This document shows positions 8,650 through 30,838 of a stretch of 49,903 nt of DNA, one piece after another. Below the pieces are notes generated by a model. That model had not been told where the DNA came from, made no database searches, and saw only the letters and a program-made list of their open reading frames with translations. How positions within the stretch are numbered: the first letter of the stretch is position 1; each line of letters starts with the position of its first letter. The DNA is from an uncultured bacterium (lineage in GTDB: Bacteria; UBP15; UBA6099; JAJRTR01), in NCBI GenBank assembly GCA_964595945.1, contig CAZQSL010000009.1:1-49903 (forward strand). The letters are read 5' to 3'. The translations under genes were made by a program, and so were the position numbers.

Positions 8650-8808
8650 GGCTGTTTCTCCCCAATAGTTTTATTGTCTGACTGATTATACCCCACTATT
8701 GCCGCAAGTGTAACATTTGATTGCGATATCACGCGCAGGGCTGTAAATTTTTACATGGCGTATTACAATATAGTTTATATTGTGCAATGCACAGAAGGGG
8801 TTATTCAA

Positions 8809-13277: not shown

Positions 13278-13445
13278 CTTACTATATTGTTGTTTTCAGG
13301 ACAAATGCAATTGCTTAAGTTTGCAGGACATCATTCTCGGGCGGTTAAAAATAGCGGGAATAGCGTCCATAGTTGGAATAATTGCGGATTCTGCAATTGT
13401 CTCAAATTCATCTATCGAAAATATCCATCTCGGGAGGCGCGAAAT

Positions 13446-14888
13446 ATGAAGACCATACCGGAAAAAGGTTTATGCAAAAATGATGTTCTCGGCGATCTTG
13501 AGTCATTCAGGGTAAAAGACCTTGACTGGCGTAGCGGGAAGGTATTCGGGTTCATTTACGATGTGGACGAAGAGCTGCGCGAGGTGGTCAAGGAATCATA
13601 CATGATGTACCTCGTGGAGAACGGGCTGGACCCCACGAGTTATCCGAGCATATTGAGGATGGAAAACGAGATAGTGGCAATGGTCGGCGGCGATCTCCTG
13701 CGGGGAGGCGACAAAGTAGTCGGGAATGTCACGTCAGGGGGCACGGAAAGCATCATGATGACAGTGCTTGCGGCCCGCAACCGCGCCCGGGCGCTGCACC
13801 CGGAAATTACTGCACCGGAAATCGTGATGCCATTCACCGCGCATGCGGCTTTTTACAAGGCGTCTCACTATCTCGGAGTCAAGATTGTGACAGTGCCGGT
13901 CAAGGATGATTCTTTCGAGGCGGACCCGGCCGCTATGCGTGAGGCGGTGAATGACAATACGATCCTGATCGTATGCTCCGCGCCCGGATATGCTCATGGT
14001 GTAATTGATCCGGTCAGAGAAATAGCGGCCATCGCTGTCGATAAAAACATCCTTTGCCATGTGGATTGCTGCGTAGGCGGTATACACCTTTCAATCATGC
14101 GCAGAATGGGTGAGCCGGTGCAGGATTTTGATTTTTCGGTGCCTGGCGTCACAAGCATCAGCGTAGACATGCACAAGTATGGCTATTCGGCGAAAAACTG
14201 CTCTCTGATCCTGTATCGCAGCCGTGACGTGCGGCGCTACCAGATTTTTGCATGCGCCAAGTGGCCTGGTTATACGATTGTCAATCCTGTCGCGAGCAGC
14301 AGCAGGACGGGCGGTCCGTTTGCCGCAGCGTGGGCAGTGCTGAATTTTCTCGGCGTCGATGGATACACGCGCATTGTCAGCGATGTAATGAAGGCCACCC
14401 GTCTCGTCATCGACGGCATCAACCGTATCCCAGGCCTGAAGATAAACGGAAATCCGCAGATGTGCATGTTCTCATTTATCTCCGAAGACCCGAAACTGAA
14501 CGTTTACCGCATCGCCGATGAAATGAAAATCAGAGGCTGGTACATTCAGCCCCAATTTGCACGAGGCAATTCACGATCGAGCATACATATTTCATTCACA
14601 TATATCAACGTCAGTCAGGCCGCAGATATGCTACGCGATCTCAAAGCGTCCGTCGAAACCATCCGCAGCCAGCCGGAAATGAAAATGGCCGACTTTTCAG
14701 CACTGGCATCCAGTCTTCAAGGGCTGGACGAGGAAGGGCTGCTTGACATGCTCGAAATGATCGGCGCAAGCGGCGGAAATATGCCCGACAGGATGGAGCC
14801 TGTAAACAGACTTCTTGAATCCCTGCCGGATGACCTTGAGGAATTTATTATTTCCTCGTTTTTCAACACGATGCAGAAAGCGCAATGA
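13446..14888 (+). CDS. PLP-dependent group II decarboxylase-fold enzyme, sphingosine-1-phosphate lyase-like
   Basis: TSGGTESI motif. PLP-lysine motif SVDMHKYGYSAKNCSLILYRS matches the SPL SADTHKYG-like signature. GGGAGG RBS before the ATG at 13446. The ORF-track start at 13287 is an upstream extension. Confidence 0.75.
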   Translation: MKTIPEKGLCKNDVLGDLESFRVKDLDWRSGKVFGFIYDVDEELREVVKESYMMYLVENGLDPTSYPSILRMENEIVAMVGGDLLRGGDKVVGNVTSGGTESIMMTVLAARNRARALHPEITAPEIVMPFTAHAAFYKASHYLGVKIVTVPVKDDSFEADPAAMREAVNDNTILIVCSAPGYAHGVIDPVREIAAIAVDKNILCHVDCCVGGIHLSIMRRMGEPVQDFDFSVPGVTSISVDMHKYGYSAKNCSLILYRSRDVRRYQIFACAKWPGYTIVNPVASSSRTGGPFAAAWAVLNFLGVDGYTRIVSDVMKATRLVIDGINRIPGLKINGNPQMCMFSFISEDPKLNVYRIADEMKIRGWYIQPQFARGNSRSSIHISFTYINVSQAADMLRDLKASVETIRSQPEMKMADFSALASSLQGLDEEGLLDMLEMIGASGGNMPDRMEPVNRLLESLPDDLEEFIISSFFNTMQKAQ

Positions 14889-14919
14889 CGGCATATACAC
14901 TTGAAAAGGGGAGAGGGGC

Positions 14920-15963
14920 ATGGCTGAAGAACGAACACTTTATCCTAATTGGCAATCGCTTTGCGAATCCGGCTACTTCAGGCAGCTACCTGACGGCAGG
15001 CTCGAACTCATTGCGCCCGACGTCGACGGAATTATTGATTTCCACACGCATCTGGGGTGGACTGTCCTGCTCGCAAAAAAAGTCGACCTGCTGAAAAGAC
15101 ACCCTGAAACACTGCATGATTTCAATCGCAAACTGAAGGTGGACCTCAGCGTTTACTCGGGTGTCAACTTCTACAACGAGCGCCCCAAATGGGGTAGCGA
15201 AGACTATGTGCCCGCTGCAATTTCTCCATTCACCAATGGCATTCACCATACGCACACGGTACCTAATATCGTCTGGGACATGGATCCACTGAAGATACGG
15301 AAATCCGTGATACTGTCGCTCGACATCAAACTCGGACCGATCCTTTCAGACAACAATTACAGATTCGGCGAAGCGATCAGAAAAGGCGCGCCTGACAGAC
15401 TTGTATTCTTCTGCACAGTACATCCCAGACACCCGCGCCGCGAAAAAGTCATCGAAGACTCCCTTGCGATGGGAGCTATGGGCATGAAAATCCACCCTGA
15501 GATGCTGCTCATGTCGATGCAGGCGCCTGAGATGATAAGCCTCTTGAAACTCTGGAACAAAATCTCGGGCGGGAAACCGGTACTGTTCCACAGCGGATTC
15601 AACGGCTTCGAGCCCAAAAAGGCTCGCGAACACGCCGCCATTGAAACCTATCACTCCGCAGTCGCAGCACTCGAAGGAGGCATCGCCGTACTCGGACACT
15701 CCGCCATGAATCAGTATCGCACAGCCATTGAAATATGCGAAAAATATCCTCACTGCCACCTCGAACTCAGCGGACAGCCCAAGTCACACCTTCGGGAAAT
15801 GCTCGACCGGCTTGGCCCGGATCGCCTGCTGTACGGATCCGACTGGCCCGTATATCCACAGGCCATCCCCATCACAAAAATACTTATGGCAACAGAAGAC
15901 TGTCGTGAATACCGCAAAAAACTCCTTTACGACAATGCCGCAAAACTGCTCTCGCTCACATAA
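14920..15963 (+). CDS. Amidohydrolase-2 family metal-dependent hydrolase (TIM barrel)
   Basis: DFHTHLGW start-of-barrel motif and C-terminal LYGSDWP motif. Strong RBS AAAGGGGAGAGGGG. Confidence 0.75.
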   Translation: MAEERTLYPNWQSLCESGYFRQLPDGRLELIAPDVDGIIDFHTHLGWTVLLAKKVDLLKRHPETLHDFNRKLKVDLSVYSGVNFYNERPKWGSEDYVPAAISPFTNGIHHTHTVPNIVWDMDPLKIRKSVILSLDIKLGPILSDNNYRFGEAIRKGAPDRLVFFCTVHPRHPRREKVIEDSLAMGAMGMKIHPEMLLMSMQAPEMISLLKLWNKISGGKPVLFHSGFNGFEPKKAREHAAIETYHSAVAALEGGIAVLGHSAMNQYRTAIEICEKYPHCHLELSGQPKSHLREMLDRLGPDRLLYGSDWPVYPQAIPITKILMATEDCREYRKKLLYDNAAKLLSLT

Positions 15964-16023
15964 AATATCTTGCTCTCCCACATGGAAACACCTGCAATCT
16001 GAGGCAATATACATGGAGTCGCT

Positions 16024-16899
16024 ATGGACGTGAAATACCTGATATTCATTGGCCTTGCCATGCTGACCCCTGCCATCGAAAACATTGGTCTGGGACTGCA
16101 AAAACTGGCCATAGATAAAATTCCGGCAGCAAATGGCCGCCTGAAAAAATCAGGTTGGACATTCGTGTGGATACTTGGCTTTGCACTGACGATTGTCGTC
16201 GCACTACTGATCTTCAAGACAATGTCACTTGGCAACGCATCAACAGTCGGCGCCTTCAGCGGATTCGGGCTGATCGTTCTTGCTCTGTTCTCACGATTTG
16301 TGCTGAAAGAAAAAATCCTTCCTCGTGAATTGATCGGGATTCTCATCATAATGTCAGGCACATCACTGATCGGGTATTTCAGTCACGGTCACCAGAATAC
16401 ATCGGTTGATTATGACAGTGAGAAACTCCTCATATTCATCCTTTGCCAAGCCTGCCTAATTGGTGCGGGATTTGCCGTGACCGTCAAGGCGCCTCGTCTT
16501 GCCGGAGTAATTCTGGGTATTATTGCGGGGAGCATAGCCGGATTATCGGTCACCACGCAGAAAATACTGTCGCACACATTTCTCGGGCTTTTCCGAGATC
16601 CGCTCCACGCCGACTATGCAGCAATCGCTCTGACTCCAGTCACATGGATTATGGTGCTGTACGGAATCGGAGGAGTCGTTTTGCTGCAATTCGCATATAA
16701 AAAAGGAAAAGCAGTGCAAGTAGTCCCTTCCCGCGCGACCGGTGCAATCCTGACACCCCTCATTGCGGGAGTCGCCTTGCTCAATGAATCAGTGCCGCCA
16801 CTCAGCCTTCTCGGCACATTGGTGATAATTGCCGGCATCATAGTTACCACCACAGCCAATCCAGCCAAAGCAGAGCATCATGGTGTCTCTATGAAATGA
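16024..16899 (+). CDS. Polytopic membrane protein, DMT superfamily (EamA/NIPA-like)
   Basis: About 9-10 hydrophobic helices. Duplicated EamA-like halves. Lies in the same operon as the PLP enzyme and amidohydrolase. Confidence 0.55.
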   Translation: MDVKYLIFIGLAMLTPAIENIGLGLQKLAIDKIPAANGRLKKSGWTFVWILGFALTIVVALLIFKTMSLGNASTVGAFSGFGLIVLALFSRFVLKEKILPRELIGILIIMSGTSLIGYFSHGHQNTSVDYDSEKLLIFILCQACLIGAGFAVTVKAPRLAGVILGIIAGSIAGLSVTTQKILSHTFLGLFRDPLHADYAAIALTPVTWIMVLYGIGGVVLLQFAYKKGKAVQVVPSRATGAILTPLIAGVALLNESVPPLSLLGTLVIIAGIIVTTTANPAKAEHHGVSMK

Positions 16900-16953: not shown

Positions 16954-19900
16954 TCATTCAGACGATACAAGCCATGTCTGGAAATGGTCGGGGTGAGTGA
17001 AATCCATGAAGAGCGAGACTTGCCGTTCGAGTTCAGGGAATAGTGCCGTTGCCTGTTCGATGTCGTTTTCTCGGGCGGCGATTTCGACGGCTGAGGCCGA
17101 GGCCCGAAGCTGTCTTGCGGCAACAATGGCGGCGTCGCCGTTGATTTTGTGCGAAACGGCCCTGATCGTATCGAAGTCTTTGGCTTCGATTCCCTGTATG
17201 ATGAGTTCGACATAGCCATCGATGCGCGAGCGAACACGTTCGACAAACTCGGAAGCATATTCCATGTCGTCATCATAGATAGTCTTGAATTCAGCGCGGT
17301 CGATGACATCGGCTCCTGGGGCCTGGTTTTCGCAGGATGGATGTGTGTTCTTTGGCTTGTTATCGTGTAGATGAATGGCGGAATGCATATTGCCGGACTC
17401 CATTGGAGTCTGTTTGATATATCGTTTGATCATGTTGGTCAGACTGTCAGGCAGGACAGGTTTGATGAGGTACTCGTCCATGCCCGATGCGAGCCCGCGA
17501 GCGCGGTCATCGGAGAAAGCGTAAGCGGAAAGGCCCACGATAGGTGTATGGCGACCGGTGGTGGTTTCCCAGTTGCGAATGCTTTGAGTCGCTTCGAAAC
17601 CATCGACGACCGGCATCTGGCAATCCATAAGTATGAGATCGTAACTGCCAGACATTGCCTTTTCGATCGCGATTGCGCCATTGTGCGCAATATCGCAGTC
17701 GGTTATACCGATGCGGTCGAGCATTTCCGTGATGACCATTTGATTGGTTTGATTGTCCTCGACGATGAGCAGGCGAGGGGAGCCATTGGCGAGAGTGAAC
17801 GATTCGAAGGAATCATCTTTGGAAGAATCGTTCATTATGCTGGCGGCAATTTCGAGGTTGACGGTAAACGAGAAAACCGCTCCGCCGTAGTCATTGTTTC
17901 CGGCACTGATCGAGCCGCCCATAGCTTCGACGATTTCGCGTGAGATGGAGAGGCCGAGGCCAGTGCCGCCGTTACTGTCGTGTAGTTGTGCGAATGGCTG
18001 GAAGAGTCCCTCGATGAGGTTATCGGGTATCCCGATGCCGGTGTCACTGACAGTGAAAGTCACGGGCGCATGCGAGTCGCCCGTGTCCTCGATCGCACAT
18101 GTGACGCTGATCGTTCCCCGTGAGGTGAATTTGATGGAATTGCCTACGAAGTTGACGAGCACCTGTCTGAGGCGCAGTCTGTCGGATTTTACACAAATGT
18201 ATTTGGAACCATGGAAAGTGGTTTTCAATACGAGTCCCTTTTCCTTTGCCTTGTGAGCCAGGAGACTGTCGATGTCAGTGAGGATTTCGTAGAGATTGAA
18301 AGTCTCGTTTGCGAGGGTGATGGCGCCGGCTTCGATGCGTGAAAAATCGAGGATGTCGGTAATGAGGCTCATCAGATGATCGGAGGCGGAAACGATGCTG
18401 TCAGTATACGATGCTGCTTTTTGTGGCAGTCCGAGGTCATTGAGCAGACGTCCGAATCCAACTATGGCGTTAAGCGGGGTGCGAAGCTCGTGGCTGATTT
18501 TTGACAGAAATACACTTTTGGCCCTGTTTGCGGATTCGGCTTTTTCCTTTTGGGTGATCAGTTCCGATTCGAGTTTCTTGAGACGGGTGATGTCGATTTG
18601 TGTGCCAGCCATACGGATTGGTTTGCCGTCGGGGTCGCGTTCGATGATTTTCCCACGGTTGAGCACCCATGAATATGATCCGTCGCAACTTTTCAGACGA
18701 TATTCTATTTCATACTTGCCGCTGACGCCTGTTATATAGTGTCTGAGTGTTTCAGCGACGTGCAGTTCGTCATCCGGATGGAGGAGTTCCTTCCAGACTG
18801 TGAGGGCAGAAATGCAGGGGTATGGCTCATAGCCGAGCATTGTCGCCCAACGGTCGTTGAGAGTTATTTCATCGGCGGGGATATTCCAGTCCCATATGCC
18901 GATGTCAGCGCCGAAGATCGCCATTTCAAGCCTTTCGCGGCTCTCCTGAAGCTGTTTTTCTGCAAGTTTTCTCTGTGTGATGTCTTCTGCGATGCCGGCA
19001 GTTCTGAGATTTTCGCCTTCCGTGCCAGCGACGACCCATGACTTGGTGCGTACCCATTTGATGGCTCCGCTTGGTGTGAAGATGCGGAACTCCTGATCGA
19101 AGACACCATTGTTTCTGAAGTCGTTATAATAAATCGTTTTCATCTTTTCGCGATCTTCTTCGACAATATAGTTGCCAAAAAGGGCCGGATTGTCATATAG
19201 TTCGTCGCGGGGGCGTTCCCATATCTGTTCATAGATTGGGCTGATATAGAGGACTTTATCGTTTGATCGAAGCCAGAAAATCTCGTTGACATTTTCTGCG
19301 ATCTGGCGGAATCTGTTTTCGCTTTCGCGAAAAGCGTCTTCCGCGAGTTTTCTGTCGTTGATATTTCTTTTGACCCCCTGAAATCCGATGTGTTTTCCGT
19401 TGGCGTCGAAAATAGGTTTTGTGATCACCTCCACCCAGCATAGGGAGCCATCCTTGCATGCGTGCTGGATCGTGAATTCACCGATTTGGCATTCCTCATA
19501 AACATCGATCGAGGCGAGCCTTGATTGTACTTCTTCGACTGCTTCCGGCGTGATGAATGCAAACAGGTTTTTCCCTATGAGATCATCGACTGTATATCCT
19601 GTCATCGCCTCTTCGGATTTGTTGACATAAGTAAAGTTGAGATCTCTGTCCATTTGCCAGACGACATCGATGATGTTTTCCGTGATGAAGCGGTATTTCG
19701 ATTCGCTTTCGAGTAATTGTTTCTCAGCGATTTTTCGCGAAGTGATATCTCTGATAATCGAGAGTGCTCCTATGTATTTTCCATCGCTGTCGAGGAGGGG
19801 AGTGAGATTGATTTCAGTCGGAAAAACAGTACCGTCCGCCTTGATGTGATCGATTTCCCTTACGACAGATACGGCATGCTCCCTTGCGGTCTGGTAGATT

Positions 19901-20835
19901 TCCGCTATTGCCGCCACACCTTCGGCAGTGACGAATTGTGAATAGTGAAGGCGTGTGACGTCAGTGCCCGGAGGGATGCCGCAGATTTTGTAAGCGACTG
20001 GCGAAGCGAACCTGATGAGGCCGTCCGGAGCTATCAGCACTATGGCATCGGGGGCGGCGTTGATGAGTGTCTGCGAGAGGATTTCAGCGTCTTTGCGTGC
20101 CGCATCAGCGTCGATAATGTCAGATATGTCCTGGATCGCGACAATAATCCCCCTGTTGACTTCGCGGCCCAATAGACATCCGGACATGAGGGCGGTGAAA
20201 ATCCTGCCATCCTTTGCCATAAATTCGATCTGTTTTTCTGAAATCACACCGGTTGTCTTCAATTCGTCGAGAAAAATAATGCGATTCTTTATGTCGAGAT
20301 ACATTTCCTGCGCTTTCGCCCTGGTAAGGTCCTCGGGGAGTTTCAGCAGGAGTCTGGCTTTTTTATTGGCAAATAAAATATGGCCGTCGAAATCCGTAAT
20401 TAAAATGGATACCGGGGCGAATTCCGCTATGATTTTGAATTTATCCCGGGAGACATCCTTGAAGGCACTGGTGTAGTGCGCTTCGTAAGACCTGTCTCGC
20501 ATTGTCACGGTGCACAGTCCGTCATCGGAAGGGATTGCGGTGCATTCGATCACGATCTGTTCGGCGAAAATGGTCTTTTCGATAATATCGCTCTGAGGGG
20601 TATTGGTCGAAAAAGCCGCATTTATCAGTTCCTCGACATTATCCACAATCGAGTCATGGAGCACGGTGTTGAGAGGCTTGTTCAGGCTGTCCGGGGGGAT
20701 TTGGAAGATGAAGCCATCTCTGGGGTTGTGACAAAACAGCAGTATACTCCCGGAGTCGACAATCAGCACCATATCCCTGATACCGTTCATCAGGGATGTC
20801 ATGATGGATTTTCCGTAATCTGTAATTGGACCCAT
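16954..20835 (-). CDS. Hybrid sensor histidine kinase with multiple PAS/PAC domains, HisKA, HATPase_c, receiver and C-terminal HPt domains
   Basis: At least five PAS-like repeats. H-box SHELRTPLN. HATPase G-boxes (DTGIGI, GGTGLGL). REC with LLIVEDN...D. HPt helix-bundle tail. Confidence 0.85.
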   Translation of the reverse strand: MGPITDYGKSIMTSLMNGIRDMVLIVDSGSILLFCHNPRDGFIFQIPPDSLNKPLNTVLHDSIVDNVEELINAAFSTNTPQSDIIEKTIFAEQIVIECTAIPSDDGLCTVTMRDRSYEAHYTSAFKDVSRDKFKIIAEFAPVSILITDFDGHILFANKKARLLLKLPEDLTRAKAQEMYLDIKNRIIFLDELKTTGVISEKQIEFMAKDGRIFTALMSGCLLGREVNRGIIVAIQDISDIIDADAARKDAEILSQTLINAAPDAIVLIAPDGLIRFASPVAYKICGIPPGTDVTRLHYSQFVTAEGVAAIAEIYQTAREHAVSVVREIDHIKADGTVFPTEINLTPLLDSDGKYIGALSIIRDITSRKIAEKQLLESESKYRFITENIIDVVWQMDRDLNFTYVNKSEEAMTGYTVDDLIGKNLFAFITPEAVEEVQSRLASIDVYEECQIGEFTIQHACKDGSLCWVEVITKPIFDANGKHIGFQGVKRNINDRKLAEDAFRESENRFRQIAENVNEIFWLRSNDKVLYISPIYEQIWERPRDELYDNPALFGNYIVEEDREKMKTIYYNDFRNNGVFDQEFRIFTPSGAIKWVRTKSWVVAGTEGENLRTAGIAEDITQRKLAEKQLQESRERLEMAIFGADIGIWDWNIPADEITLNDRWATMLGYEPYPCISALTVWKELLHPDDELHVAETLRHYITGVSGKYEIEYRLKSCDGSYSWVLNRGKIIERDPDGKPIRMAGTQIDITRLKKLESELITQKEKAESANRAKSVFLSKISHELRTPLNAIVGFGRLLNDLGLPQKAASYTDSIVSASDHLMSLITDILDFSRIEAGAITLANETFNLYEILTDIDSLLAHKAKEKGLVLKTTFHGSKYICVKSDRLRLRQVLVNFVGNSIKFTSRGTISVTCAIEDTGDSHAPVTFTVSDTGIGIPDNLIEGLFQPFAQLHDSNGGTGLGLSISREIVEAMGGSISAGNNDYGGAVFSFTVNLEIAASIMNDSSKDDSFESFTLANGSPRLLIVEDNQTNQMVITEMLDRIGITDCDIAHNGAIAIEKAMSGSYDLILMDCQMPVVDGFEATQSIRNWETTTGRHTPIVGLSAYAFSDDRARGLASGMDEYLIKPVLPDSLTNMIKRYIKQTPMESGNMHSAIHLHDNKPKNTHPSCENQAPGADVIDRAEFKTIYDDDMEYASEFVERVRSRIDGYVELIIQGIEAKDFDTIRAVSHKINGDAAIVAARQLRASASAVEIAARENDIEQATALFPELERQVSLFMDFTHPDHFQTWLVSSE

Positions 20836-20968: not shown

Positions 20969-20997
20969 TTGACCGCGAAGGGGAAATCAGGGATAAT
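20969..20997 (+). promoter_or_regulatory. Candidate sigma70 promoter of the BMC operon (TTGACC-17 nt-GATAAT)
   Basis: Seen in sequence, about 35 nt upstream of the eutN ATG. Spacing is exactly 17 nt. Confidence 0.4.
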
Positions 20998-21031: not shown

Positions 21032-21319
21032 ATGGTACTCGGACGCGTCATAGGCACAGTAGTTGCAACACAAAAGAGTGATTCGCTAACGGGCAGAAAG
21101 CTGATGATGGTGCGCACACTCGATGTCGATCTCAAGCCGACGGAGGAGTATTTCGTTGCTGTGGATGCCGTGGGCTGCGGCAATGATGAAGTTGTGCTCT
21201 GCTCGAAGGGAAGCTCGGCGCGCCAGACTCCCCAGACAAAGAATACTCCCTCGGACATGGTTATTCTCGGCATCGTCGATTACGTTGATATCGATGGGCA
21301 GCAGATTTTCAAAAAGTGA
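21032..21319 (+). CDS. eutN: BMC vertex (pentamer) protein, EutN/CcmL/PduN family
   Basis: MVLGRVIGTVVATQK N-terminus and family length. GGGAG RBS. Confidence 0.9.
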   Translation: MVLGRVIGTVVATQKSDSLTGRKLMMVRTLDVDLKPTEEYFVAVDAVGCGNDEVVLCSKGSSARQTPQTKNTPSDMVILGIVDYVDIDGQQIFKK

Positions 21320-21422
21320 GTGCTGCCGCACAGTTTTCCATTCATGGTATGGCGGGATGGTGTTTTTTCAGTGTACATAATTATGGAATTAAAAAACATA
21401 TAAGGTTTATATGGAGGGTAAA

Positions 21423-21725
21423 ATGGAAAGCCGAATAGCACTTGGACTCATCGAAACCCGCGGACTCGTCGCCGCTATCGAAGCTGCTGACGCAATGGTC
21501 AAGGCAGCCAATGTCACTCTCGTCGGGAAAGAATACATCGGCGGAGGCTATGTCACCATCCTCATCAGAGGCGATGTAGGCGCTGTCAAGGCAGCCACGG
21601 ACGCAGGGGCTGCGGCAGTCGAAAAAATCGGTGAACTCGTCTCCGTACACGTCATTCCCAGACCGCACACCGATGTCGAACTTATCATACCCACCAAAGG
21701 CGTCGCTCCGAAAGCTACTAAATAA
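21423..21725 (+). CDS. eutM: BMC-H hexameric shell protein (EutM/PduA type)
   Basis: [27 protein letters not shown] canonical BMC domain. The upstream in-frame ATG GAGGG at 21411 more likely acts as the RBS. Confidence 0.9.
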
Positions 21726-21772
21726 GACTCCGGCGTTTCGGCTGACAATAGCGTTTCGCAATCATTCTTCGC

Positions 21773-21812
21773 GACGCACCGCGCCGTCTGCACACCGGCG
21801 GCGCGGTGCGTC
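21773..21812 (+). promoter_or_regulatory. Perfect 14-bp GC-rich inverted repeat (GACGCACCGCGCCG / CGGCGCGGTGCGTC, 12-nt loop) between the shell gene and eutB
   Basis: Seen directly. No downstream U-tract, so an intra-operon mRNA processing/stability or attenuator element is more likely than a terminator. Confidence 0.45.
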
Positions 21813-21826
21813 ATACGGGAGTTCTG

Positions 21827-23200
21827 ATGAAGCTTTCCACCACGATCAGAGGCCATTCTTATTCTTTCACCTCAGTTAAGGATGTCCTCGCAAAAGCTAA
21901 TGAGGAAAAATCCGGCGATACCCTCGCGAAGGTCGGCGCATTGTCCGATCTGGAGCGCATCGCCGCCAAACACGTACTTAGCGAACTCACTCTCGAAGAC
22001 CTTCGCAATAATCCCGTCGTACCCTATGAGGAAGACGAAGTGACGCGCGTCATCGACGACCAGGTCAACGAGACTATCTATGCTGACATCAAAAACTGGT
22101 CAGTCGGCGAGCTGCGCGAGTATATCCTCAAACCCACGACCACTAATCACCACATCCGCCGCATTTCCAACGGCCTGACATCCGAAATGGTTGCCGGGTG
22201 CGCGAAGCTTATGGGCGCTATGGACCTGATACTCGGCGCACAAAAGATCGAAGTGGTCGTTCACGCAAACAACACGATAGGACTTCCCGGCACACTTGGT
22301 TCGCGCCTCCAGCCCAATCATCCCACCGATGACATTGACGGCATACTTGCTTCGGCAAAGGAGGGGCTGGCCTACGGCTGCGGCGATGCGGTCATTGGCG
22401 TAAACCCTTGCATCGATTCACCCAAGAAGGTCACCGAAATCCTCAAGGCGCTCGAAGAAGTCCGCCTGAAGTGGGACATACCGACGCAGTTGTGCGTACT
22501 CGCTCACGTCACCACACAAATGGAAGCCATCAAACTCGGCGCGCCCACCGGCCTCACATTCCAGTCGCTCGCCGGCAGCGAAGCCGCCTGCAAGGCGTTC
22601 GGCATAAATGTCGCGATGCTCGACGAGGCATACGAACTTTCTAAAAAATACAACAATGCCGCCGGTCCCAATGTCATGTACTTCGAGACAGGGCAGGGGT
22701 CCGAACTATCCTCTAACGGACATCACGGCGCCGACCAGACAACACTCGAAGCCCGCTGCTACGGCCTCGCGAAACGCTATAGTCCTTTCATGGTCAATTC
22801 CGTCGTAGGATTCATCGGCCCAGAATATCTCTTCAATGGACGGCAGGTGATACGCGCCGGACTCGAAGATCATTTCATGGGCAAGCTCACCGGCATTTCG
22901 ATGGGCCTCGACTCCTGCTACACCAATCACATGGACACCGATCAATCCGACATAGAAAACCTCGCCGTGCTGCTGACCATGGCTGGCATCAATTTCTTCA
23001 TGTGCGTGCCGATGGGCGATGACATCATGCTCAACTACCAGCTCACATCGTTCCATGACATCGCCGCGCTACGTGAAATCTGTGGCAAACGTCCCGCGCC
23101 GGAATTCGAACAGTGGCTCGAAAAAATTGGTCTCATGGAAAACGGCCGCCTCACAAAGCTCGCGGGCGACGCATCTTTTTTTGACGGGGAGGCCCGATGA
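21827..23200 (+). CDS. eutB: Ethanolamine ammonia-lyase large subunit
   Basis: Full-length EutB similarity (MKLSTTIRG...). GGGAG RBS. The ORF-track GTG at 21806 is an upstream extension. Confidence 0.92.
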   Translation: MKLSTTIRGHSYSFTSVKDVLAKANEEKSGDTLAKVGALSDLERIAAKHVLSELTLEDLRNNPVVPYEEDEVTRVIDDQVNETIYADIKNWSVGELREYILKPTTTNHHIRRISNGLTSEMVAGCAKLMGAMDLILGAQKIEVVVHANNTIGLPGTLGSRLQPNHPTDDIDGILASAKEGLAYGCGDAVIGVNPCIDSPKKVTEILKALEEVRLKWDIPTQLCVLAHVTTQMEAIKLGAPTGLTFQSLAGSEAACKAFGINVAMLDEAYELSKKYNNAAGPNVMYFETGQGSELSSNGHHGADQTTLEARCYGLAKRYSPFMVNSVVGFIGPEYLFNGRQVIRAGLEDHFMGKLTGISMGLDSCYTNHMDTDQSDIENLAVLLTMAGINFFMCVPMGDDIMLNYQLTSFHDIAALREICGKRPAPEFEQWLEKIGLMENGRLTKLAGDASFFDGEAR

Positions 23201-24048
23201 GCCAGTCGGACGATCTCAGGAAACTCATAGCGGAAGTTGTCCGCGACGTGCTCGAAGAAACAGGGGCAACAGCTCAGGCCGAACCTGCCACAACATACGG
23301 CGCTGACGGTGACGATCTGCGGAACCGTGTGCTCATGCCATGTGAAAAGCAGCGCGCGGCTCTTGAAAAAATGCGCCAGTCAACCCCCGCCCGTATCGGC
23401 GTCTGGCGCGCGGGAGCACGCTATAAAACCGAATCCTACCTCAAGGCGCGAGCCGATCATGCCGTCGCACGTGATGCTGTCCTCATATCGCTCGATAAGG
23501 CGAAAATCGAACAGCTCGGCATCCTGTATGTCGATTCGGCCGCCGCTAACAAAACGGAATTTCTCATCAATCCCTCGCTTGGCCGCCGACTGTCCGATGT
23601 GTCCGCCGAATCCGTAAAGGCGAATTGCCCGTCGGAAACTGACGTTCAGATCGTCATCTGCGATGGCCTTTCATCGGCTGCCATCGAACTCAACATTGCT
23701 TCGTTCCTTCCGGCACTTATGAATAACCTTCAGGGCAAGGGCCTCAAACTCGGCAAACCAATCTATGTGAATAACGGACGCGTTGCCGTGCAGGATCAGA
23801 TCGGCGATATCCTTCGCCCACGTATCGCACTCAGCATCGTCGGCGAACGCCCCGGACTCGTGACTGCCGAATCGATGGGCTGTTACATTACTTACAATCC
23901 ATCATCCGAACGCGTCGAAGCCGAGCGCACCATGATTTCCAATATCCACAAAGGTGGACTGCATCCGCAGAAAGCAGCTGTGGAAATTGCAGAAAAGACA
24001 CGCAAAATTTTCGATCAGAAAGCCTCAGGAATGGGCTTCAAGGAGTAA
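23197..24048 (+). CDS. eutC: Ethanolamine ammonia-lyase small subunit with N-terminal amphipathic encapsulation-peptide-like helix
   Basis: ATGA overlap with eutB. VAVQDQIGDILRPRIALSIVGERPGL core. N-terminal DDLRKLIAEVVRDVLEE. Confidence 0.9.
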   Translation: MSQSDDLRKLIAEVVRDVLEETGATAQAEPATTYGADGDDLRNRVLMPCEKQRAALEKMRQSTPARIGVWRAGARYKTESYLKARADHAVARDAVLISLDKAKIEQLGILYVDSAAANKTEFLINPSLGRRLSDVSAESVKANCPSETDVQIVICDGLSSAAIELNIASFLPALMNNLQGKGLKLGKPIYVNNGRVAVQDQIGDILRPRIALSIVGERPGLVTAESMGCYITYNPSSERVEAERTMISNIHKGGLHPQKAAVEIAEKTRKIFDQKASGMGFKE

Positions 24049-24056
24049 TCACCAAG

Positions 24057-24710
24057 ATGCCTCTCGAACCAGTAAAACCAAAAGTCCTTGCCGCACGGAT
24101 TATTCCGCGCGTCAACGATTTCTATCATAAGCAACTTGATCTTCTGCCCGAAGAAGCGTGCATCGGCATGATTACGGCCACGTCCGACGATGCAACATAC
24201 GTATCGCTCGACCACGCGACTAAAGCCGCACAGGTGCGGGTCGTTTATGCCGAATCATTCTACGCTGGCGCGGGAGCGGCGTCCGGCCCACTGAGCGGCG
24301 AAGTCATCGGCATCATTTCAGGCACTGATCCGTCCGAGGTGAAAAGTGGCCTCGACGCGGCCATACAGTACCTTGAAGAAAGCGCGTGGTTCTACACCGG
24401 CGACGACGATGGACACCTCGTATTCTTTCCGCATGTCATTTCACGCGCTGGCGCATATCTGTCCGATCTCGCGCAGGTGCCTTTCGGCAGTCCTCTTTCA
24501 TATCTCATCGCGCCCCCTATCGAAGCCATGTACGCAATGGACCGTTCGCTCAAGGAAGCGGATGTGCAGATGCAGGTGTTCTGGGGTCCGCCGTCGCACA
24601 CCAACTTTGCTGGATGCCTGCTGACAGGTTCGCAAAGTGCGTGTCAGGAATCGGCAAAAGTGTTTTCAGATGCAATCATTGAAGTGGCAGCAAACCCGAT
24701 GCGATTCTGA
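24057..24710 (+). CDS. eutL: BMC-T tandem-domain shell protein EutL
   Basis: Length and sequence are typical of EutL. AGGAG RBS. Confidence 0.85.
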   Translation: MPLEPVKPKVLAARIIPRVNDFYHKQLDLLPEEACIGMITATSDDATYVSLDHATKAAQVRVVYAESFYAGAGAASGPLSGEVIGIISGTDPSEVKSGLDAAIQYLEESAWFYTGDDDGHLVFFPHVISRAGAYLSDLAQVPFGSPLSYLIAPPIEAMYAMDRSLKEADVQMQVFWGPPSHTNFAGCLLTGSQSACQESAKVFSDAIIEVAANPMRF

Positions 24711-24786
24711 TCTGTCGCAGACAAATGTATTTTTGGCCGGATTACCGAATCCCGGCGAAACAAAATAACGGTCAAGAGTGATCACA

Positions 24787-26229
24787 ATGGACAAAGACCT
24801 CGCAGGAATACAGGAAGCACGCGACAAGGTGGCGGCCGCGGTTGCCGCGCAAAAACTACTCGCCGAATTTTCCCAGGAGAAGATCGACCGAATTGTCGCC
24901 CGCATGTGTCAGGCAGGAGCACAGGCAGCCGAAAAGCTCGCGCGTATGGCTGTCGAAGAATCCGGCATGGGCAAAGTTGACGACAAAACCGCGAAAAACG
25001 AACTCGCCACCAGCGGGCTGTATGAATATATTAAGGATATGAAAACCGCAGGCATCGTCAGTGAAGACAAGACGCGAAAAATGTGGGAAGTGGCCGTACC
25101 GGTCGGCGTAGTCGCGGCGATCACGCCCACCACCAATCCAACGTCTACAACGATGCACAATGCGATAGTGGCGATGAAGGCCCGTTGCGCCTCGGTCATC
25201 AGCCCACATCCGCGCTCGAAGAACTGTTCTGCCGAAGCCATCGGCATACTGATGGCGGCGGCGCATTCAGCCGGCGCACCCGAAGGCTCGCTTAATTGTC
25301 TTACATCAGGCACGATGGGTGGCACGACTGAAATAATGAAGAACAGCGGCACGTCGGTCATCGTCGCCACCGGTGGTTCCGACATGGTTCGCGCGGCATA
25401 TTCATGCGGAAAACCGGCCTATGGCGTTGGCCCCGGCAATGTCCCCGCATTCATAGAACGAACCGCCGACATCGAAAAAGCGGTCCGCGATGTCCTGATT
25501 TCAAAATCATTCGATTATGGTGTGATATGCGCGTCCGAACAGGCCATTGTCACTGAAAGGCCAATTCGCGACAAGGTTATTGCGTCGCTTAAACGCAATG
25601 GAGCTTATGTGATGAACACCGATGAAATTGCTAAAATCAATAAAATCATACAGACTCCGGCAGGTGGCCTCAACGCTAAAATTGTCGGGCAGAGCGCCGA
25701 AAAGCTGGCTCAGATGGCAGGATTCAGCGTGCCGAAAAACACGCCCGCACTCGTCGGTGAAATCGACGGCGTTGGGAAAGCATATCCACTTTCCCGCGAA
25801 AAACTCGCCCCGATCCTCGCGCTCTATGTAGAAGACGGATGGGAAAGCGCGTGCGCGCGCTGCATGGAAATGCTCGAATATGGTGGTATTGGTCACACAC
25901 TCGGGCTCCATACGACGAACATTGACCTTGTCAAGGAATTCGCTCTCAAAAAACCTGTCGCACGTCTCATCGTAAATTCGCCGACAACACATGGCGCGGT
26001 TGGTCTTTCTACCGGACTTGCCCCGTCGTTTACACTCGGGTGCGGCGCGGTCGGCGGCACTATTACGACCGACAACATCACGCCCATGCACCTGATAAAT
26101 CTAAAACGTGTAGCGTTCGAACTGAAATCCTTCAACAAGCCCTCCGGCCCGGTCACTACTGATGATGGCGACCTCTCGGGCACAATCCGCAAAGTTGTTT
26201 CACGTCTCATGAAAGAGCAGGCAAAATGA
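24787..26229 (+). CDS. eutE: CoA-acylating acetaldehyde dehydrogenase EutE
   Basis: ALDH fold with catalytic Cys in GVICASEQ. The start could instead be the GTG at 24778. The C-terminal tail [29 protein letters not shown] resembles a linker plus encapsulation helix. Confidence 0.85.
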
Positions 26230-26990
26230 AGAGAGAAGTCCTGACTGAAATAAAACTTCGCGCCCTGAAAAAACAGGGCATTAATCAGGTGGCAATCACC
26301 GAAGGTACGCTTGTCACGCCATCAGCGCGCGACTTTGCCCGGCAGGCTGGCATAACTGTCACGGTCAACGAAGCATCTGTCGCCACGTCCGCGCCTTCGA
26401 AGACAGCCGGGAAATACACTCCGCCCGTAGCGCCAAAAGGCTCCTTCACTAACAGCTATACTGGCGAATCGCTCGATGCGAAACCCGAACATTTTACACA
26501 TCTGCAAGGCAATGTGCTTGTGCAGAAGAATCACCCGCGCATTGCATTCCGTGGCCAGATCGACAAAATTCAGGCCTACGTCGTCGAAGCTCAGATACTT
26601 GCGAAACAGGAGAAAATACCCGCTCTCGAATCAGACCTCGACGATGTGCTCAAGCTCCTGCGCGAGATTATGCGCGCCGAAGTACGCGACGTACCGCTTG
26701 CTGATGTTCCGGTTTTCGGTCTTACTGTCGAGCAACTCCGGGAGGCGTCACACAATCCAGCTAAATTTTTCAATACCGGCCATACGCTTGCCGATAAAAA
26801 TTCGAGCATGGCGGTCGCGCGTATCAACATCATGCGGACCATCGTCCGCGAGGCCGAAATCACCGCGCTTGACGCATTCGCGGGCGGTGTCACTCTCAAG
26901 CCCGAACGCAGTGATATTCTAACTGCCATGAACCGCCTTTCGAGCGCGTTTTACATCTTGATGTGCAAATATTCTGGAGGGTCGGAATGA
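26226..26990 (+). CDS. eutT: EutT-type ATP:cob(I)alamin adenosyltransferase
   Basis: ATGA overlap with eutE. N-terminal LTPSARDF motif and C-terminal ILTAMNRLSSAFYILM motif align to Salmonella EutT. Confidence 0.8.
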   Translation: MKREVLTEIKLRALKKQGINQVAITEGTLVTPSARDFARQAGITVTVNEASVATSAPSKTAGKYTPPVAPKGSFTNSYTGESLDAKPEHFTHLQGNVLVQKNHPRIAFRGQIDKIQAYVVEAQILAKQEKIPALESDLDDVLKLLREIMRAEVRDVPLADVPVFGLTVEQLREASHNPAKFFNTGHTLADKNSSMAVARINIMRTIVREAEITALDAFAGGVTLKPERSDILTAMNRLSSAFYILMCKYSGGSE

Positions 26991-27655
26991 GCGCACGCGA
27001 AGACCAGATCGCCGCGCGAATACTCGCGGAACTAAATAAGGATAAAACGCAGGCGGCGCCAGGCGCGCGATGCAAACTTGACCGCAAATCCATACCAGTC
27101 GGCATTTCCAACCGTCACCTGCACCTCTGCCGGGCCGATCTTGACGCGCTATTCGGTTCGGGGTATGAACTTTCGAAAAAGAATGACCTGTCGCAGAAAG
27201 GGGAATTCGCTTCGAACGAACTGGTCACGCTCACCGGCCCACGGGGCAGCATAGAAAAGGTTCGAGTGCTCGGCCCGCTTCGCCCGGAAACACAGATTGA
27301 AATTTCTCCGACTGATGCCCGCCGCCTCGGAGTGATGCCCCCAGTGCGTCTTTCCGGAGATACCAAAGGCACGCCTGGCCTCACTATCAAGGGGCCGGCT
27401 GGCGAAGTGAAAATGAATTCCGGGCTGATCATCGCCAAGCGTCATCTGCACGCCAATCCCGAACAGGCCAAAGTGCTCGGACTCCGCGATGGCGATGTCA
27501 TCAGCATAAGGGCGCTGACCGAACGGCCCACAATATTCGAAGGCGTGTCAGTCAGAGTGCGCCCGTCATTTGAAATCGAACTCCACATCGATGTGGACGA
27601 AGCCAACGCCGCGATGATAAATAACGGCGACTCAGTCGAAATTGTGAGGAAATAA
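26987..27655 (+). CDS. pduL: PduL-type phosphotransacylase (phosphate acetyl/propanoyl-transferase) with N-terminal encapsulation peptide
   Basis: ATGA overlap with eutT. GGAGG RBS. Duplicated PduL half-domains. Confidence 0.85.
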   Translation: MSAREDQIAARILAELNKDKTQAAPGARCKLDRKSIPVGISNRHLHLCRADLDALFGSGYELSKKNDLSQKGEFASNELVTLTGPRGSIEKVRVLGPLRPETQIEISPTDARRLGVMPPVRLSGDTKGTPGLTIKGPAGEVKMNSGLIIAKRHLHANPEQAKVLGLRDGDVISIRALTERPTIFEGVSVRVRPSFEIELHIDVDEANAAMINNGDSVEIVRK

Positions 27656-27957
27656 TGGCTAAATACAGATTCATAAAAACTCCGACCCGCAACACCATAG
27701 AAATCATCAAGCGCCGGCTCGTAAGCCGTGACCGTGCCGACGAACTCGACTGGACGGCAGTCGGCCTTGTGCAATGCAGTGTGGCCGACATCATCTACGC
27801 ATCCGATGTTGCCGAAAAAACTTCCGATATAATCGCGCTCGAACTCTCCGGCACATGCCCGCAGCACATCACCACTCTTGCGTTGTTCGGCGAAACGGCG
27901 GCGGTCGACGCGGCGCTCGAATCAGTCAAACGCGCTCTCGCCGAGACCGAATGCTGA
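27655..27957 (+). CDS. Circularly permuted BMC shell protein (EutS/PduU type)
   Basis: About 100 aa with a permuted BMC fold. TAATG overlap with pduL. Confidence 0.8.
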   Translation: MAKYRFIKTPTRNTIEIIKRRLVSRDRADELDWTAVGLVQCSVADIIYASDVAEKTSDIIALELSGTCPQHITTLALFGETAAVDAALESVKRALAETEC

Positions 27958-27995
27958 CACGGTGAAACATATATAAAGGATTAAGGTGGGAATCA

Positions 27996-29321
27996 TTGAA
28001 CCGCGATGAACTCGTAAAAATTGTCAGGGACGCTGGAATTGTTGGCTGCGGCGGCGCGGGGTTCCCAACGCACGTCAAGGTCAATGCCAGCGCCGAAGTG
28101 GTGATCGCTAACGGCGCATCGTGCGAACCGCTCCTGCATTCGGACATCCATCTACTCGAACACGAGGCCGGAGGCGTAGTGCGCGGACTGCGTTATGTGA
28201 TGGATGCCGTCGGCGCGAAACGCGGTGTCATTGCCATCAAAAAGAAACATCCAGAAGCCATTTCCGCGGTGGAGCGAGTACTCACAACCGGGATTGAAAT
28301 TTTTACGCTCGAAGATTTTTATCCCGCTGGCGATGAACAGGTTCTCGTATATGAAATCATGGGCAAAATTGTGCCTGAAGGGGGCATTCCGCTCAATGTC
28401 GGCGCGGTTGTGGACAACATCGAAACGCTGTTCAACATCACTCGCGCAGTCGATGGATTCCCCGTCACGCACAGGTGGCTGACGGTAGCGGGAGCAGTGA
28501 GGAAACCCCGCGTGATGCTCGCTCCCGTTGGTGCGCCACTTAGTGAAATACTCGCGCTCGCGGGCGGTGCCACTGTCACGAGTGCCGGCTATATCGAGGG
28601 CGGTCCGATGATGGGCAAAATCATTGACATCGAAACTGCCGTCGTCAAAAAGACCACCACCGGACTGCTTGTTTTTCCGGCTGATCATGTGATTTTTACA
28701 CGCCGCGAAATGTCAATCGAAGCGATCATCAGGCGCGGCATGTCTGCCTGCACGCAATGTACTTACTGTACGGACATGTGCCCGCGATACCTGATCGGCC
28801 ATCGACTGCGCCCCAATCTCACGATGCGCTCCGTCGCGTTCAGCCATTTCGATCCCGAAGGCCCGGCTTCCGATGCCCTTATTTGCTGTGAGTGTGGAGT
28901 CTGCGAAACGACTGCCTGCAATCTCGGCCTGTCGCCGATGCGCGTGAACATGATGCTGAAGAAAAGATATGCGGAAGAGGGCGTAAAATTCAAACGGACG
29001 GAAACGGCGCTCGAAGTCCATCCGTTCAGGTATGCACGGCTCACGCCGATCAAAAATATCATGCAGCGCGGCGACATGCTTGAATGGTACGGGCAGAAAT
29101 TATCAGATGTTACTGAGCTTTTCACGCAACGAGTGGAAGTGCCTCTTAGCCAGCACATAGGCGCTCCTTGTGAAGCTATCGTAGCTCCTGGAGCAAAGGT
29201 GAAGCTGTTCGAAATGATAGGCAAACCATCCGATGGAAAACTCGGCGCGCCGGTGCATTCACCGATAGACGGAACTGTAAAAGATATTACTGACGGAAGA
29301 ATAACAATTGAGGCGAAATGA
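27996..29321 (+). CDS. pduS: PduS-like cobalamin reductase (RnfC/NqrF-like flavin-NAD domain plus two 4Fe-4S clusters)
   Basis: N-terminal GIVGCGGAGFPTHVK motif. Cys clusters CTQCTYCTDMCP and CCECGVCETTAC. TTG start after AAGGTGGG RBS. Confidence 0.8.
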   Translation: MNRDELVKIVRDAGIVGCGGAGFPTHVKVNASAEVVIANGASCEPLLHSDIHLLEHEAGGVVRGLRYVMDAVGAKRGVIAIKKKHPEAISAVERVLTTGIEIFTLEDFYPAGDEQVLVYEIMGKIVPEGGIPLNVGAVVDNIETLFNITRAVDGFPVTHRWLTVAGAVRKPRVMLAPVGAPLSEILALAGGATVTSAGYIEGGPMMGKIIDIETAVVKKTTTGLLVFPADHVIFTRREMSIEAIIRRGMSACTQCTYCTDMCPRYLIGHRLRPNLTMRSVAFSHFDPEGPASDALICCECGVCETTACNLGLSPMRVNMMLKKRYAEEGVKFKRTETALEVHPFRYARLTPIKNIMQRGDMLEWYGQKLSDVTELFTQRVEVPLSQHIGAPCEAIVAPGAKVKLFEMIGKPSDGKLGAPVHSPIDGTVKDITDGRITIEAK

Positions 29322-29875
29322 TGCAGCGAACAATCGGAATGGTTGAATTTCTCAGCGTCGCTAAGGGCATCGAAGGTATCGACGTAATGCTCAAGGCGGC
29401 GGATGTGCAGCTACTTGCGGCAAAACCACTCTGTCCCGGCAAATACATGGTGATGGTAGGCGGCGACGCGGCAGAAGTGGACAGTTCCGTGCAGGCAGGC
29501 ATCAGACATGGCTCGCACTTCATCGTCGGTTACACCTGCATCAACAATGTCCATGAAATGGTGTTCCCTGCGATATGGGGCACTTCAAAATACGACTTGC
29601 GCGCGCTCGGTGTCGTAGAGACTTACAACGTCGTAACAGCAGTTCGCGCAGCCGACATCGCGGCGAAATCAGCCGACATCGAATTGATCGAGCTCCGGCT
29701 TTCGGTTGGCCTCGGCGGCAAGGCATTCATCACACTAACCGGATATGTAGACGCCGTACAGACAGCAGTGGATGCCGGGGCGGCGCTCGCCAACGCTACG
29801 GGCGAACTCGTCAGCAGCGTGGTTATCGCAGCTCCTCATCCTGATTTACACAGGGCGATCAGTACGCCCGTCTGA
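29318..29875 (+). CDS. pduT: BMC-T tandem shell protein, PduT-like
   Basis: 185 aa, two BMC domains. ATGA overlap with pduS. Confidence 0.8.
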   Translation: MMQRTIGMVEFLSVAKGIEGIDVMLKAADVQLLAAKPLCPGKYMVMVGGDAAEVDSSVQAGIRHGSHFIVGYTCINNVHEMVFPAIWGTSKYDLRALGVVETYNVVTAVRAADIAAKSADIELIELRLSVGLGGKAFITLTGYVDAVQTAVDAGAALANATGELVSSVVIAAPHPDLHRAISTPV

Positions 29876-30207
29876 TGAAAAATGACGACTCACACAGGTG
29901 CGATATGGGAAAACTTATTACGAAAAAAGAGATTGTAGAAGCAAACGCGAAACACTTTTCGGAACTCGAAGTGCCATGCGACGCCATCATCACCCCACTT
30001 GCGCAGGATGCCGCGAAACAATATGGCATCGAGATCGTAAAGTCGGGCGGCCCAAGCCGCGCGTGTGACGTACGCTCGCTTCAGGGCGGAGCGGTCGATG
30101 AGGCGGCCATCGAGAAAATCGCGCGCATGGCAATAAGCGACCTCGGTGATAAAGCCGACCTCGAAACGGTCATCCGCATTGTCGAAAAAGTCGTCAGGAA
30201 AATGTAG
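29875..30207 (+). CDS. Small BMC-operon protein homologous to the N-terminal domain of EutT (ITPLAQD motif) with an amphipathic C-terminal helix
   Basis: ATGA overlap with pduT; the start could instead be the ATG at 29905 after an AGGTG. Motif EVPCDAIITPLAQDAAKQYGIEIV parallels EutT QVAITEGTLVTPSARDFARQAGITVTV. The C-terminal DLETVIRIVEKVVRKM resembles the EutE tail [14 protein letters not shown]. Confidence 0.6.
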   Translation: MKNDDSHRCDMGKLITKKEIVEANAKHFSELEVPCDAIITPLAQDAAKQYGIEIVKSGGPSRACDVRSLQGGAVDEAAIEKIARMAISDLGDKADLETVIRIVEKVVRKM

Positions 30208-30309: not shown

Positions 30310-30771
30310 TTATACGAAATAGTACCATTTGTTCATTGGGATTTCTTGTGGATGTATTTCATGGATCGTTCTGATAATTTGCTCCGAGTATTGAACTGCA
30401 ATGTCGGCATCTTCATCAAGCACTTTCATCACGACATCATTGTCGCCTGATGATCGATATCTGAAAAGCTTGGAGTGCATTTCCCCAAAATCCTGCTGGT
30501 ATCTTCCACTTTTCACAAGTTCACGGGGAACTGCTGATGCGACTTGCTGATGTTTCTTGAACATCGCGCCTTCCATTACAGCAAACAATGCACATACAGC
30601 ATAGAACGCAGCGTAGTAAGCCCGATTTGTCAGATCGAAGCCAGTCCTGACTTGCAGGCGATCATCGCGGTCAATTCGCAGGGCCGTCAGAAGATCACGC
30701 GCAAGGCATACTTCAAGATCGAGTTCACGAACGGCTCCATCATCAACTTTAGACCGGTTGGCGCTTACCAT
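30310..30771 (-). CDS. HEPN domain protein (solo, no MNT partner)
   Basis: RAYYAAFYAVCALFA helix. The C-terminal half matches the HEPN pattern. The ORF-track upstream start is a TTG; the ATG at 30771 is chosen. Confidence 0.55.
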   Translation of the reverse strand: MVSANRSKVDDGAVRELDLEVCLARDLLTALRIDRDDRLQVRTGFDLTNRAYYAAFYAVCALFAVMEGAMFKKHQQVASAVPRELVKSGRYQQDFGEMHSKLFRYRSSGDNDVVMKVLDEDADIAVQYSEQIIRTIHEIHPQEIPMNKWYYFV

Positions 30772-30838
30772 TACAAGCAGTTCGCAATTATTGCGACTGC
30801 CCAATGCGGCATATGGATTTCCACATGCCGCATTGGGC

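Follow-up and report, generated by a model that had tools for sequence, protein, structure and literature searches.

Gene content and layout of the operon

The DNA examined here, hereafter the window, is a whole public contig of 49,903 nt (CAZQSL010000009.1) from the metagenome-assembled genome GCA_964595945.1 of an uncultured bacterium of the UBP15 lineage. Its plus strand carries an operon for an ethanolamine bacterial microcompartment (BMC), made up of twelve tightly packed open reading frames (ORFs), several of which overlap their neighbors by 1 to 4 nt. The operon encodes ethanolamine ammonia-lyase (EutBC) together with the PduS/PduT pair, and has neither an alcohol dehydrogenase nor the lyase reactivase EutA. 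It is the missing EutA, not the missing alcohol dehydrogenase, that is the unusual feature.

ORFs were identified with Pfam and NCBIfam, complemented by PDB matches for the shell and PduS proteins and by scans for motifs and amphipathic helices (Table 1). All twelve are full length against the profiles. The limits 21032 and 30207, given in a preliminary description of this DNA, are exactly those of the operon, and Pfam and NCBIfam bear out the gene content proposed there. In our survey of related loci (see below), this 12-gene set is among the most compact self-contained EUT designs.

Table 1. Features of the ethanolamine operon and their positions in the window.
Feature	Position	Strand	Basis
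Candidate sigma-70-like promoter, TTGACC-17-GATAAT	20969..20997	+	~35 nt upstream of first gene
BMC-P vertex protein (EutN/CcmL family)	21032..21319	+	PF03319, E = 3e-31
BMC-H hexamer shell protein, EutM-like	21411..21725	+	PF00936, E = 1.5e-30; NCBIfam EutM 130 bits
EutB, ethanolamine ammonia-lyase large subunit	21806..23200	+	PF06751, 695 bits, full length
EutC, small subunit	23197..24048	+	PF05985 over residues 55-282, 267 bits
EutL, BMC-T, permuted tandem type	24057..24710	+	TIGR04502, 308 bits (cut-off 300)
Acylating acetaldehyde dehydrogenase (EutE function, Firmicutes EUT2 type)	24778..26229	+	PF00171; TIGR02518 609 bits (cut-off 620)
EutT-like ATP:cob(I)alamin adenosyltransferase	26226..26990	+	PF01923; NF011595 112 bits
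PduL-type phosphotransacylase (PTAC; recycles coenzyme A)	26963..27655	+	PF06130 243 bits; NF011652 253 bits (cut-off 209)
GrpU-like permuted BMC-H	27655..27957	+	PDB GrpU 4OLP, 4OLO best, E = 1.8e-18
PduS/MNdh (NADH-oxidizing flavin mononucleotide (FMN) + 2x[4Fe-4S] protein)	27996..29321	+	PF01512, PF10531, PF13534, C-terminal PF13375
PduT/BMC-T^SE tandem shell protein	29318..29875	+	Two BMC domains; PDB best: PduT-type trimers 3NWG, 3PAC, 3N79
110-aa EutQ N-terminal module without cupin domain	29875..30207	+	NCBIfam EutQ positions 1-99, E = 3e-5

Two of the starts in Table 1 are probably to be moved downstream: that of EutB to 21827 (the database gene model has 457 aa), and that of PduL likely to an ATG at 26987 that overlaps with the stop codon of EutT. 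Helices resembling encapsulation peptides (EPs) are present at the N-terminus of EutC (residues 6-20, DLRKLIAEVVRDVLE, an amphipathic segment with the highest hydrophobic moment in the protein), at the C-terminus of EutE (residues 465-479) and at the N-terminus of PduL (residues 12-26). The 110-aa product of the last gene has a C-terminal helix of strongly amphipathic character (residues 96-110, LETVIRIVEKVVRKM); it also matches the C-terminus of TIGR02536, and a EutQ profile match was obtained at 8.6e-11. A module of about 45 aa ("EutQ-N", "...ITPLAxDxAxxxGI...") begins both this protein and EutT (26226-26365, plus strand). Both the N-terminus of EutQ and the C-terminus of TIGR02536 match this module, which recurs in related loci on EutT, EutQ and small proteins beside EutN.

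The promoter candidate is weak: it agrees with the consensus at 10 of 12 positions, and such sites are no commoner in the region than in shuffled sequences. No RNA family, including the adenosylcobalamin (AdoCbl) riboswitch, was matched by Rfam in the window.

Genes missing from the contig

The preliminary description had reported that the operon lacks EutA and an alcohol dehydrogenase, and this holds across the 49.9-kb contig with Pfam, tblastn and custom profiles. Pfam searches of all large ORFs of the window gave no match to PF06277 (EutA) or to alcohol dehydrogenase families, and none of the E. coli proteins EutA, EutG, EutH, EutJ, EutQ, EutP and EutD found a counterpart in the window by tblastn at 1e-5. 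Profile hidden Markov models were built from EutA and EutG homologues in related loci (75 and 43 sequences, respectively) and searched against the six-frame translation of the window, 693 segments in all; the best E values, 2.9 for EutA and 0.75 for EutG, are noise. Since the window spans all of the public contig and no more, absence from the operon does not extend to absence from the genome.

In relatives, EutA lies either upstream of EutB or at the EutC/EutL junction. Here the gap between EutC and EutL measures 8 nt and BMC-H precedes EutB. Both junctions are intact and tight, and thus leave no space for a eutA pseudogene or a deletion scar.

The window likewise has no EutH, EutJ or EutP, no cupin domain of EutQ and no EutV/W regulators, and neither an Eat transporter nor a EutR regulator occurs at the operon. 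Of the canonical metabolosome core (aldehyde dehydrogenase, phosphotransacylase and alcohol dehydrogenase), the window lacks the alcohol dehydrogenase. The phosphotransacylase belongs to the PduL type, as judged from its PF06130 score, and the EutD query of E. coli is without a match. With so many accessory genes gone, and with a lineage so isolated that the nearest EutB is just 69% identical, one might think of a decaying or non-functional remnant. We regard this as highly improbable, for the twelve ORFs are full length, catalytic and cofactor motifs as well as targeting helices are conserved, and the overlaps typical of translational coupling are retained between genes.

NAD+ recycling through PduS and PduT

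The PduS protein comprises Complex1_51K, SLBB and Fer4_17 domains followed by a C-terminal RnfC_N, and in the PDB it is matched best by chains of RnfC. It carries the glycine-rich NADH/FMN motif GCGGAGF at residues 17-23 and two cysteine motifs, CxxCxxCxxxC (residues 252-262) and CxxCxxCxxxxC (residues 297-308). The pduS and pduT genes overlap by 4 nt. PduT has the pore motif CPGK at residues 39-42, which ligates a [4Fe-4S] cluster and conforms to the CP(G/S)K motif by which the module is recognized. The GrpU-like protein has the sequence GTCPQH at residues 66-71, in agreement with the Fe-S pore motif G-X-C-P-Q-N/H defined for GrpU (PMC6325248). Two shell proteins with Fe-S pores therefore flank PduS, the GrpU-like protein immediately upstream and PduT downstream; the former was absent from the preliminary account of this arrangement.

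The combination of a PduS/PduT pair with no alcohol dehydrogenase is the signature of the EUT2B and EUT2D types (147 and 28 loci, respectively; PMC8217296 Supplementary Data 2), EutG being encoded by EUT2A only (Axen et al. 2014). A study published in PNAS in 2024 (PMC11626177) renamed PduS as MNdh and PduT as BMC-T^SE, and showed by experiment that electrons from NADH leave through the Fe-S pore of PduT, regenerating NAD+. Regeneration was reported in vitro for the C. botulinum homologue, and the same work counted 361 BMC loci that carry PduS/PduT without an alcohol dehydrogenase. Our own survey, in which the window EutB was used to find 80 loci, 51 of them with enough flanking sequence, gave a concordant picture: EutG is missing in 7 of the 8 loci with PduS and in 7 of the 43 without it (Fisher p = 2e-4, uncorrected for phylogeny). 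Doing without an alcohol dehydrogenase is thus an established design, catalogued since 2021 and demonstrated in 2024. The earlier suggestion that the NADH produced by EutE is reoxidized via PduS flavin chemistry agrees with the published mechanism, with the EUT2B/EUT2D signature and with the survey; it is not new.

With EUT2B and EUT2D (Sutter et al. 2021, PMC8217296), the operon shares EutBC, EutL, a pfam00171 aldehyde dehydrogenase, a PduL-type PTAC, a EutT-type adenosyltransferase, BMC-H, BMC-P, a GrpU-like BMC-Hp and the PduS/PduT pair without an alcohol dehydrogenase. It differs from them in lacking EutA, which is part of their EutABC signature set, as well as EutJ, EutP, EutH and the EutV/W two-component regulator; in addition, EutQ is cut to its N-terminal module and the gene order starts with EutN and BMC-H. 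Like the published MNdh/BMC-T^SE module (PMC11626177), the locus has adjacent PduS and CPGK-bearing PduT, an aldehyde dehydrogenase and no alcohol dehydrogenase, whereas the GrpU-like Fe-S shell protein directly before PduS is an addition. We also weighed the EUT3 type (Sutter 2021) and discarded it, as its BMC-T^dp shell protein and its distinct aldehyde dehydrogenase are both absent from this locus.

PduS, PduT and EutT do not generally replace EutA

EutA is present in 50 of the 51 well-covered related BMC loci. The preliminary description proposed that PduS, PduT and EutT could cover B12 maintenance in its place. We found EutA in every one of the PduS/PduT-bearing EUT loci examined (13/13: L002, L003, L006, L009, L016, L027, L049, L062, L075, L085, L086, L092 and L093 of the survey). 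Hence, having the three proteins does not generally free a locus from the need for EutA, and the proposal is not supported.

The functions of the proteins point in the same direction. EutA catalyzes the ATP-dependent removal, or exchange, of damaged cofactor bound to the enzyme (PMC5821096). PduS and EutT work on free cobalamin, which they reduce and adenosylate, respectively: a step that comes after the release driven by EutA. Furthermore, the 2024 study noted little room for cobalamin in the PduS structure and argued for a role in B12 metabolism that is at most indirect (PMC11626177). It is true that the literature credits PduS homologues with the in vitro reduction of both cob(III)alamin and cob(II)alamin, and EutT with the adenosylation of cob(I)alamin, and that the window has intact genes for all three proteins and none for EutA. 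Nevertheless, with the 13 loci keeping EutA beside PduS/PduT, and with EutA stripping the enzyme-bound cofactor before any step open to PduS or EutT, we consider it improbable that the three proteins jointly replace EutA here, remaking AdoCbl from inactivated cob(II)alamin and rendering a reactivase unnecessary.

The identity of the adenosyltransferase itself calls for some qualification. EutT is its best-scoring family (PduO_Nterm reaches 32 bits), and the protein is 35% identical to E. coli EutT. However, the score against the EutT profile NF011595 (Table 1) lies below the equivalog cut-off of 226 bits, and the metal motif HX11CCX2C, present in E. coli EutT, is missing from the window protein, which has a single Cys. 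The name EutT given in the preliminary description is right as to the closest family and is to be read with these two reservations. The lack of the motif would fit the metal-free Firmicutes class of EutT (Costa & Escalante-Semerena 2018).

Ammonia-lyases without EutA in other bacteria

There are precedents for EutBC without a reactivase. EutBC from Acinetobacter baumannii supports growth of Salmonella without EutA (PMC9426561), and Pelobacter carbinolicus grows on ethanolamine with a whole genome devoid of eutA (PMC3543383). As in the window, eutBC occurs in these organisms without any eutA. Their lyases, however, are unencapsulated, with no shell genes and no EutC peptide, whereas the window has both the EutC peptide and a full shell.

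A closer parallel came from the survey. A well-populated clade of two-gene eutBC modules from Clostridia, several from gut samples (L030, L041, L047, L090/L091, L094 and L095; bootstrap 100/100), shares with the window an amphipathic, encapsulation-peptide-like EutC N-terminus and the lack of a nearby eutA. No eutA was found within 10 kb on either side of these modules where the contig allows (L047, L090, L091, L094 and L095); L030 and L041 are shorter contigs. In L047, L090 and L091, a PduS/PduT-bearing BMC locus with no visible alcohol dehydrogenase lies 5 kb from eutBC. The Clostridia modules stand apart from the shell genes, in contrast to the window, where eutBC is embedded in the shell/enzyme operon. 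Two further loci outside any BMC context (L088 and L089) combine a sigma-54 activator with eutBC in one module, also without eutA. The Clostridia modules often lie beside a DUF3887 gene or a gene for a patatin-like phospholipase.

A grouping of the window EutBC with this clade was considered on the basis of a first neighbor-joining tree (71/100); the grouping was then lost and is unsupported. The window lyase is best regarded as an orphan on a long branch. In a search among 5.8 billion proteins, the nearest EutB after an entry 100% identical to that of the window is 69% identical, and the nearest EutC at most 51%. Apart from this contig, exact protein matches came only from two short Logan contigs (SRR15237810 and SRR15237811). 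Scanning genome contigs with EutB gave a best identity of at most 69%, and a metagenome scan with EutT returned a single match, of 39%. Across the operon, no protein exceeds 69% identity to a sampled homologue, with the exception of BMC-H (84%).

Several related loci have two EutB paralogues, in tandem (L003, L004, L085 and L086) or separate (L020 and L054). The second copy is 57-64% identical to the window EutB, and a single EutC follows it in L085 and L086, for which gene calls were available. One PduS/PduT-bearing locus (L092, from the Ignavibacteriales metagenome-assembled genome GCA_050260105.1) is a fused locus in which a single string of genes encodes EutA, a glycyl-radical enzyme and the activase for it, a protein resembling CsoS1D, EutBC and PduS/PduT; it looks like a GRM/EUT hybrid microcompartment.

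Genes around the operon

The lineage of the contig can be gauged from its UvrB gene (8755-10824, plus strand), whose product is 64-68% identical to its nearest relatives in the 5.8 billion set and 58% identical to UvrB of Firmicutes, the closest named relatives, values too low for a confident assignment to a phylum. No protein exceeds 68%, and the contig comes from a deep, poorly sampled lineage. The GC content of the operon is 54-56%, against 47-51% immediately on either side, and a HEPN-domain gene lies just downstream (30310-30804, minus strand). The GC contrast and the HEPN neighbor are compatible with horizontal acquisition.

Upstream of the operon and divergent from it is the gene for a hybrid PAS histidine kinase of 1293 aa (16954-20835, minus strand), which might be the sensor of the operon. 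A glycerophosphodiester phosphodiesterase gene (2039-2899, plus strand) could free ethanolamine from glycerophosphoethanolamine, and a cluster at 12306-16899 comprises an AraC regulator, a pyridoxal-phosphate-dependent group II decarboxylase, an amidohydrolase and an EamA transporter. All of these are possible sources of amines or routes for them, with no established connection to the eut operon.

A model for the operon

Altogether, the data make it likely that we are dealing with a pared-down ethanolamine metabolosome similar to EUT2B and EUT2D, in which NAD+ is recycled by PduS/PduT and EutA is not replaced by PduS, PduT and EutT. EutBC, targeted by the N-terminal peptide of EutC, would yield acetaldehyde, which EutE, carrying its own peptide at the C-terminus, would oxidize to acetyl-CoA with formation of NADH. 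PduL would regenerate CoA. By analogy with the homologues described in the literature, NADH would be oxidized at the FMN of PduS, and the electrons would travel by way of the two [4Fe-4S] clusters of PduS, and then of the one that sits in the pore of PduT, to the outside of the shell, with the GrpU-like protein possibly supplying a second Fe-S pore. Since NAD+ would be recycled by PduS instead of an alcohol dehydrogenase, no ethanol would be made, and all ethanolamine carbon would end up in acetyl-CoA and acetyl-phosphate. Free cob(I)alamin would be re-adenosylated by EutT, and PduS may aid in cobalamin reduction. As for the damaged cofactor, the explanation that we favor over a eutA on another contig is that the lyase tolerates it, or slowly exchanges it unaided, as the Acinetobacter enzyme does.

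Some observations weigh against this interpretation. The presence of EutA in nearly all related loci, and in every PduS/PduT-bearing one, suggests that its loss may be costly. The link to the EutA-less Clostridia did not withstand a better alignment and the inclusion of more clade members, bootstrap values falling to 3/100 for EutB, 59/100 for EutC and 42/100 for the concatenated subunits. PduS is only about 40-43% identical to its homologues in related loci. The window holds no ethanolamine transporter and no known eut regulator, and the locus may rely on genes elsewhere. Finally, the assembled genome may simply have its eutA on a contig other than this one.

This last point can be extended to a more general alternative, in which EutA and possibly the alcohol dehydrogenase, EutH and the regulators lie in a satellite locus on another contig, the whole being an ordinary EUT2B/EUT2D locus split in two. 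Split and satellite BMC loci are common, the window is a single 49.9-kb contig of a metagenome-assembled genome, and a transporter and a regulator must in any case come from elsewhere. Yet, in the 50 well-covered relatives that have it, eutA lies inside the eut locus and mostly adjoins eutB or eutC; the catalogued "EUT modules" hold EutA, EutB and EutC together; and the EutC-EutL and BMC-H-EutB junctions are tight and scarless. On balance we see the split locus as a serious possibility, short of being the likelier outcome. Given the nearly constant physical linkage of eutA with eutBC, we rate the chance that it is truly absent from the genome as somewhat better than even. The stronger claim, that the genome has no eutA and that the encapsulated ethanolamine ammonia-lyase runs reactivase-free, as might also hold for the EutA-less clade of Clostridia, is put forward tentatively and on present evidence is rather doubtful.

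In conclusion, the locus adds one more, very divergent, case of NAD+ recycling by PduS/PduT in an ethanolamine BMC. Beyond the published design, the point that deserves attention is the missing reactivase; the overall interest is modest. If an encapsulated B12-dependent lyase does work without EutA, either a resistance to suicide inactivation or a spontaneous exchange of the cofactor would have evolved inside microcompartments. Comparison of the window lyase with its EutA-dependent relatives (65-69% identical) could then pinpoint the determinants of resistance to inactivation in a B12 radical enzyme, and the minimal list of parts for engineered ethanolamine microcompartments would become shorter.

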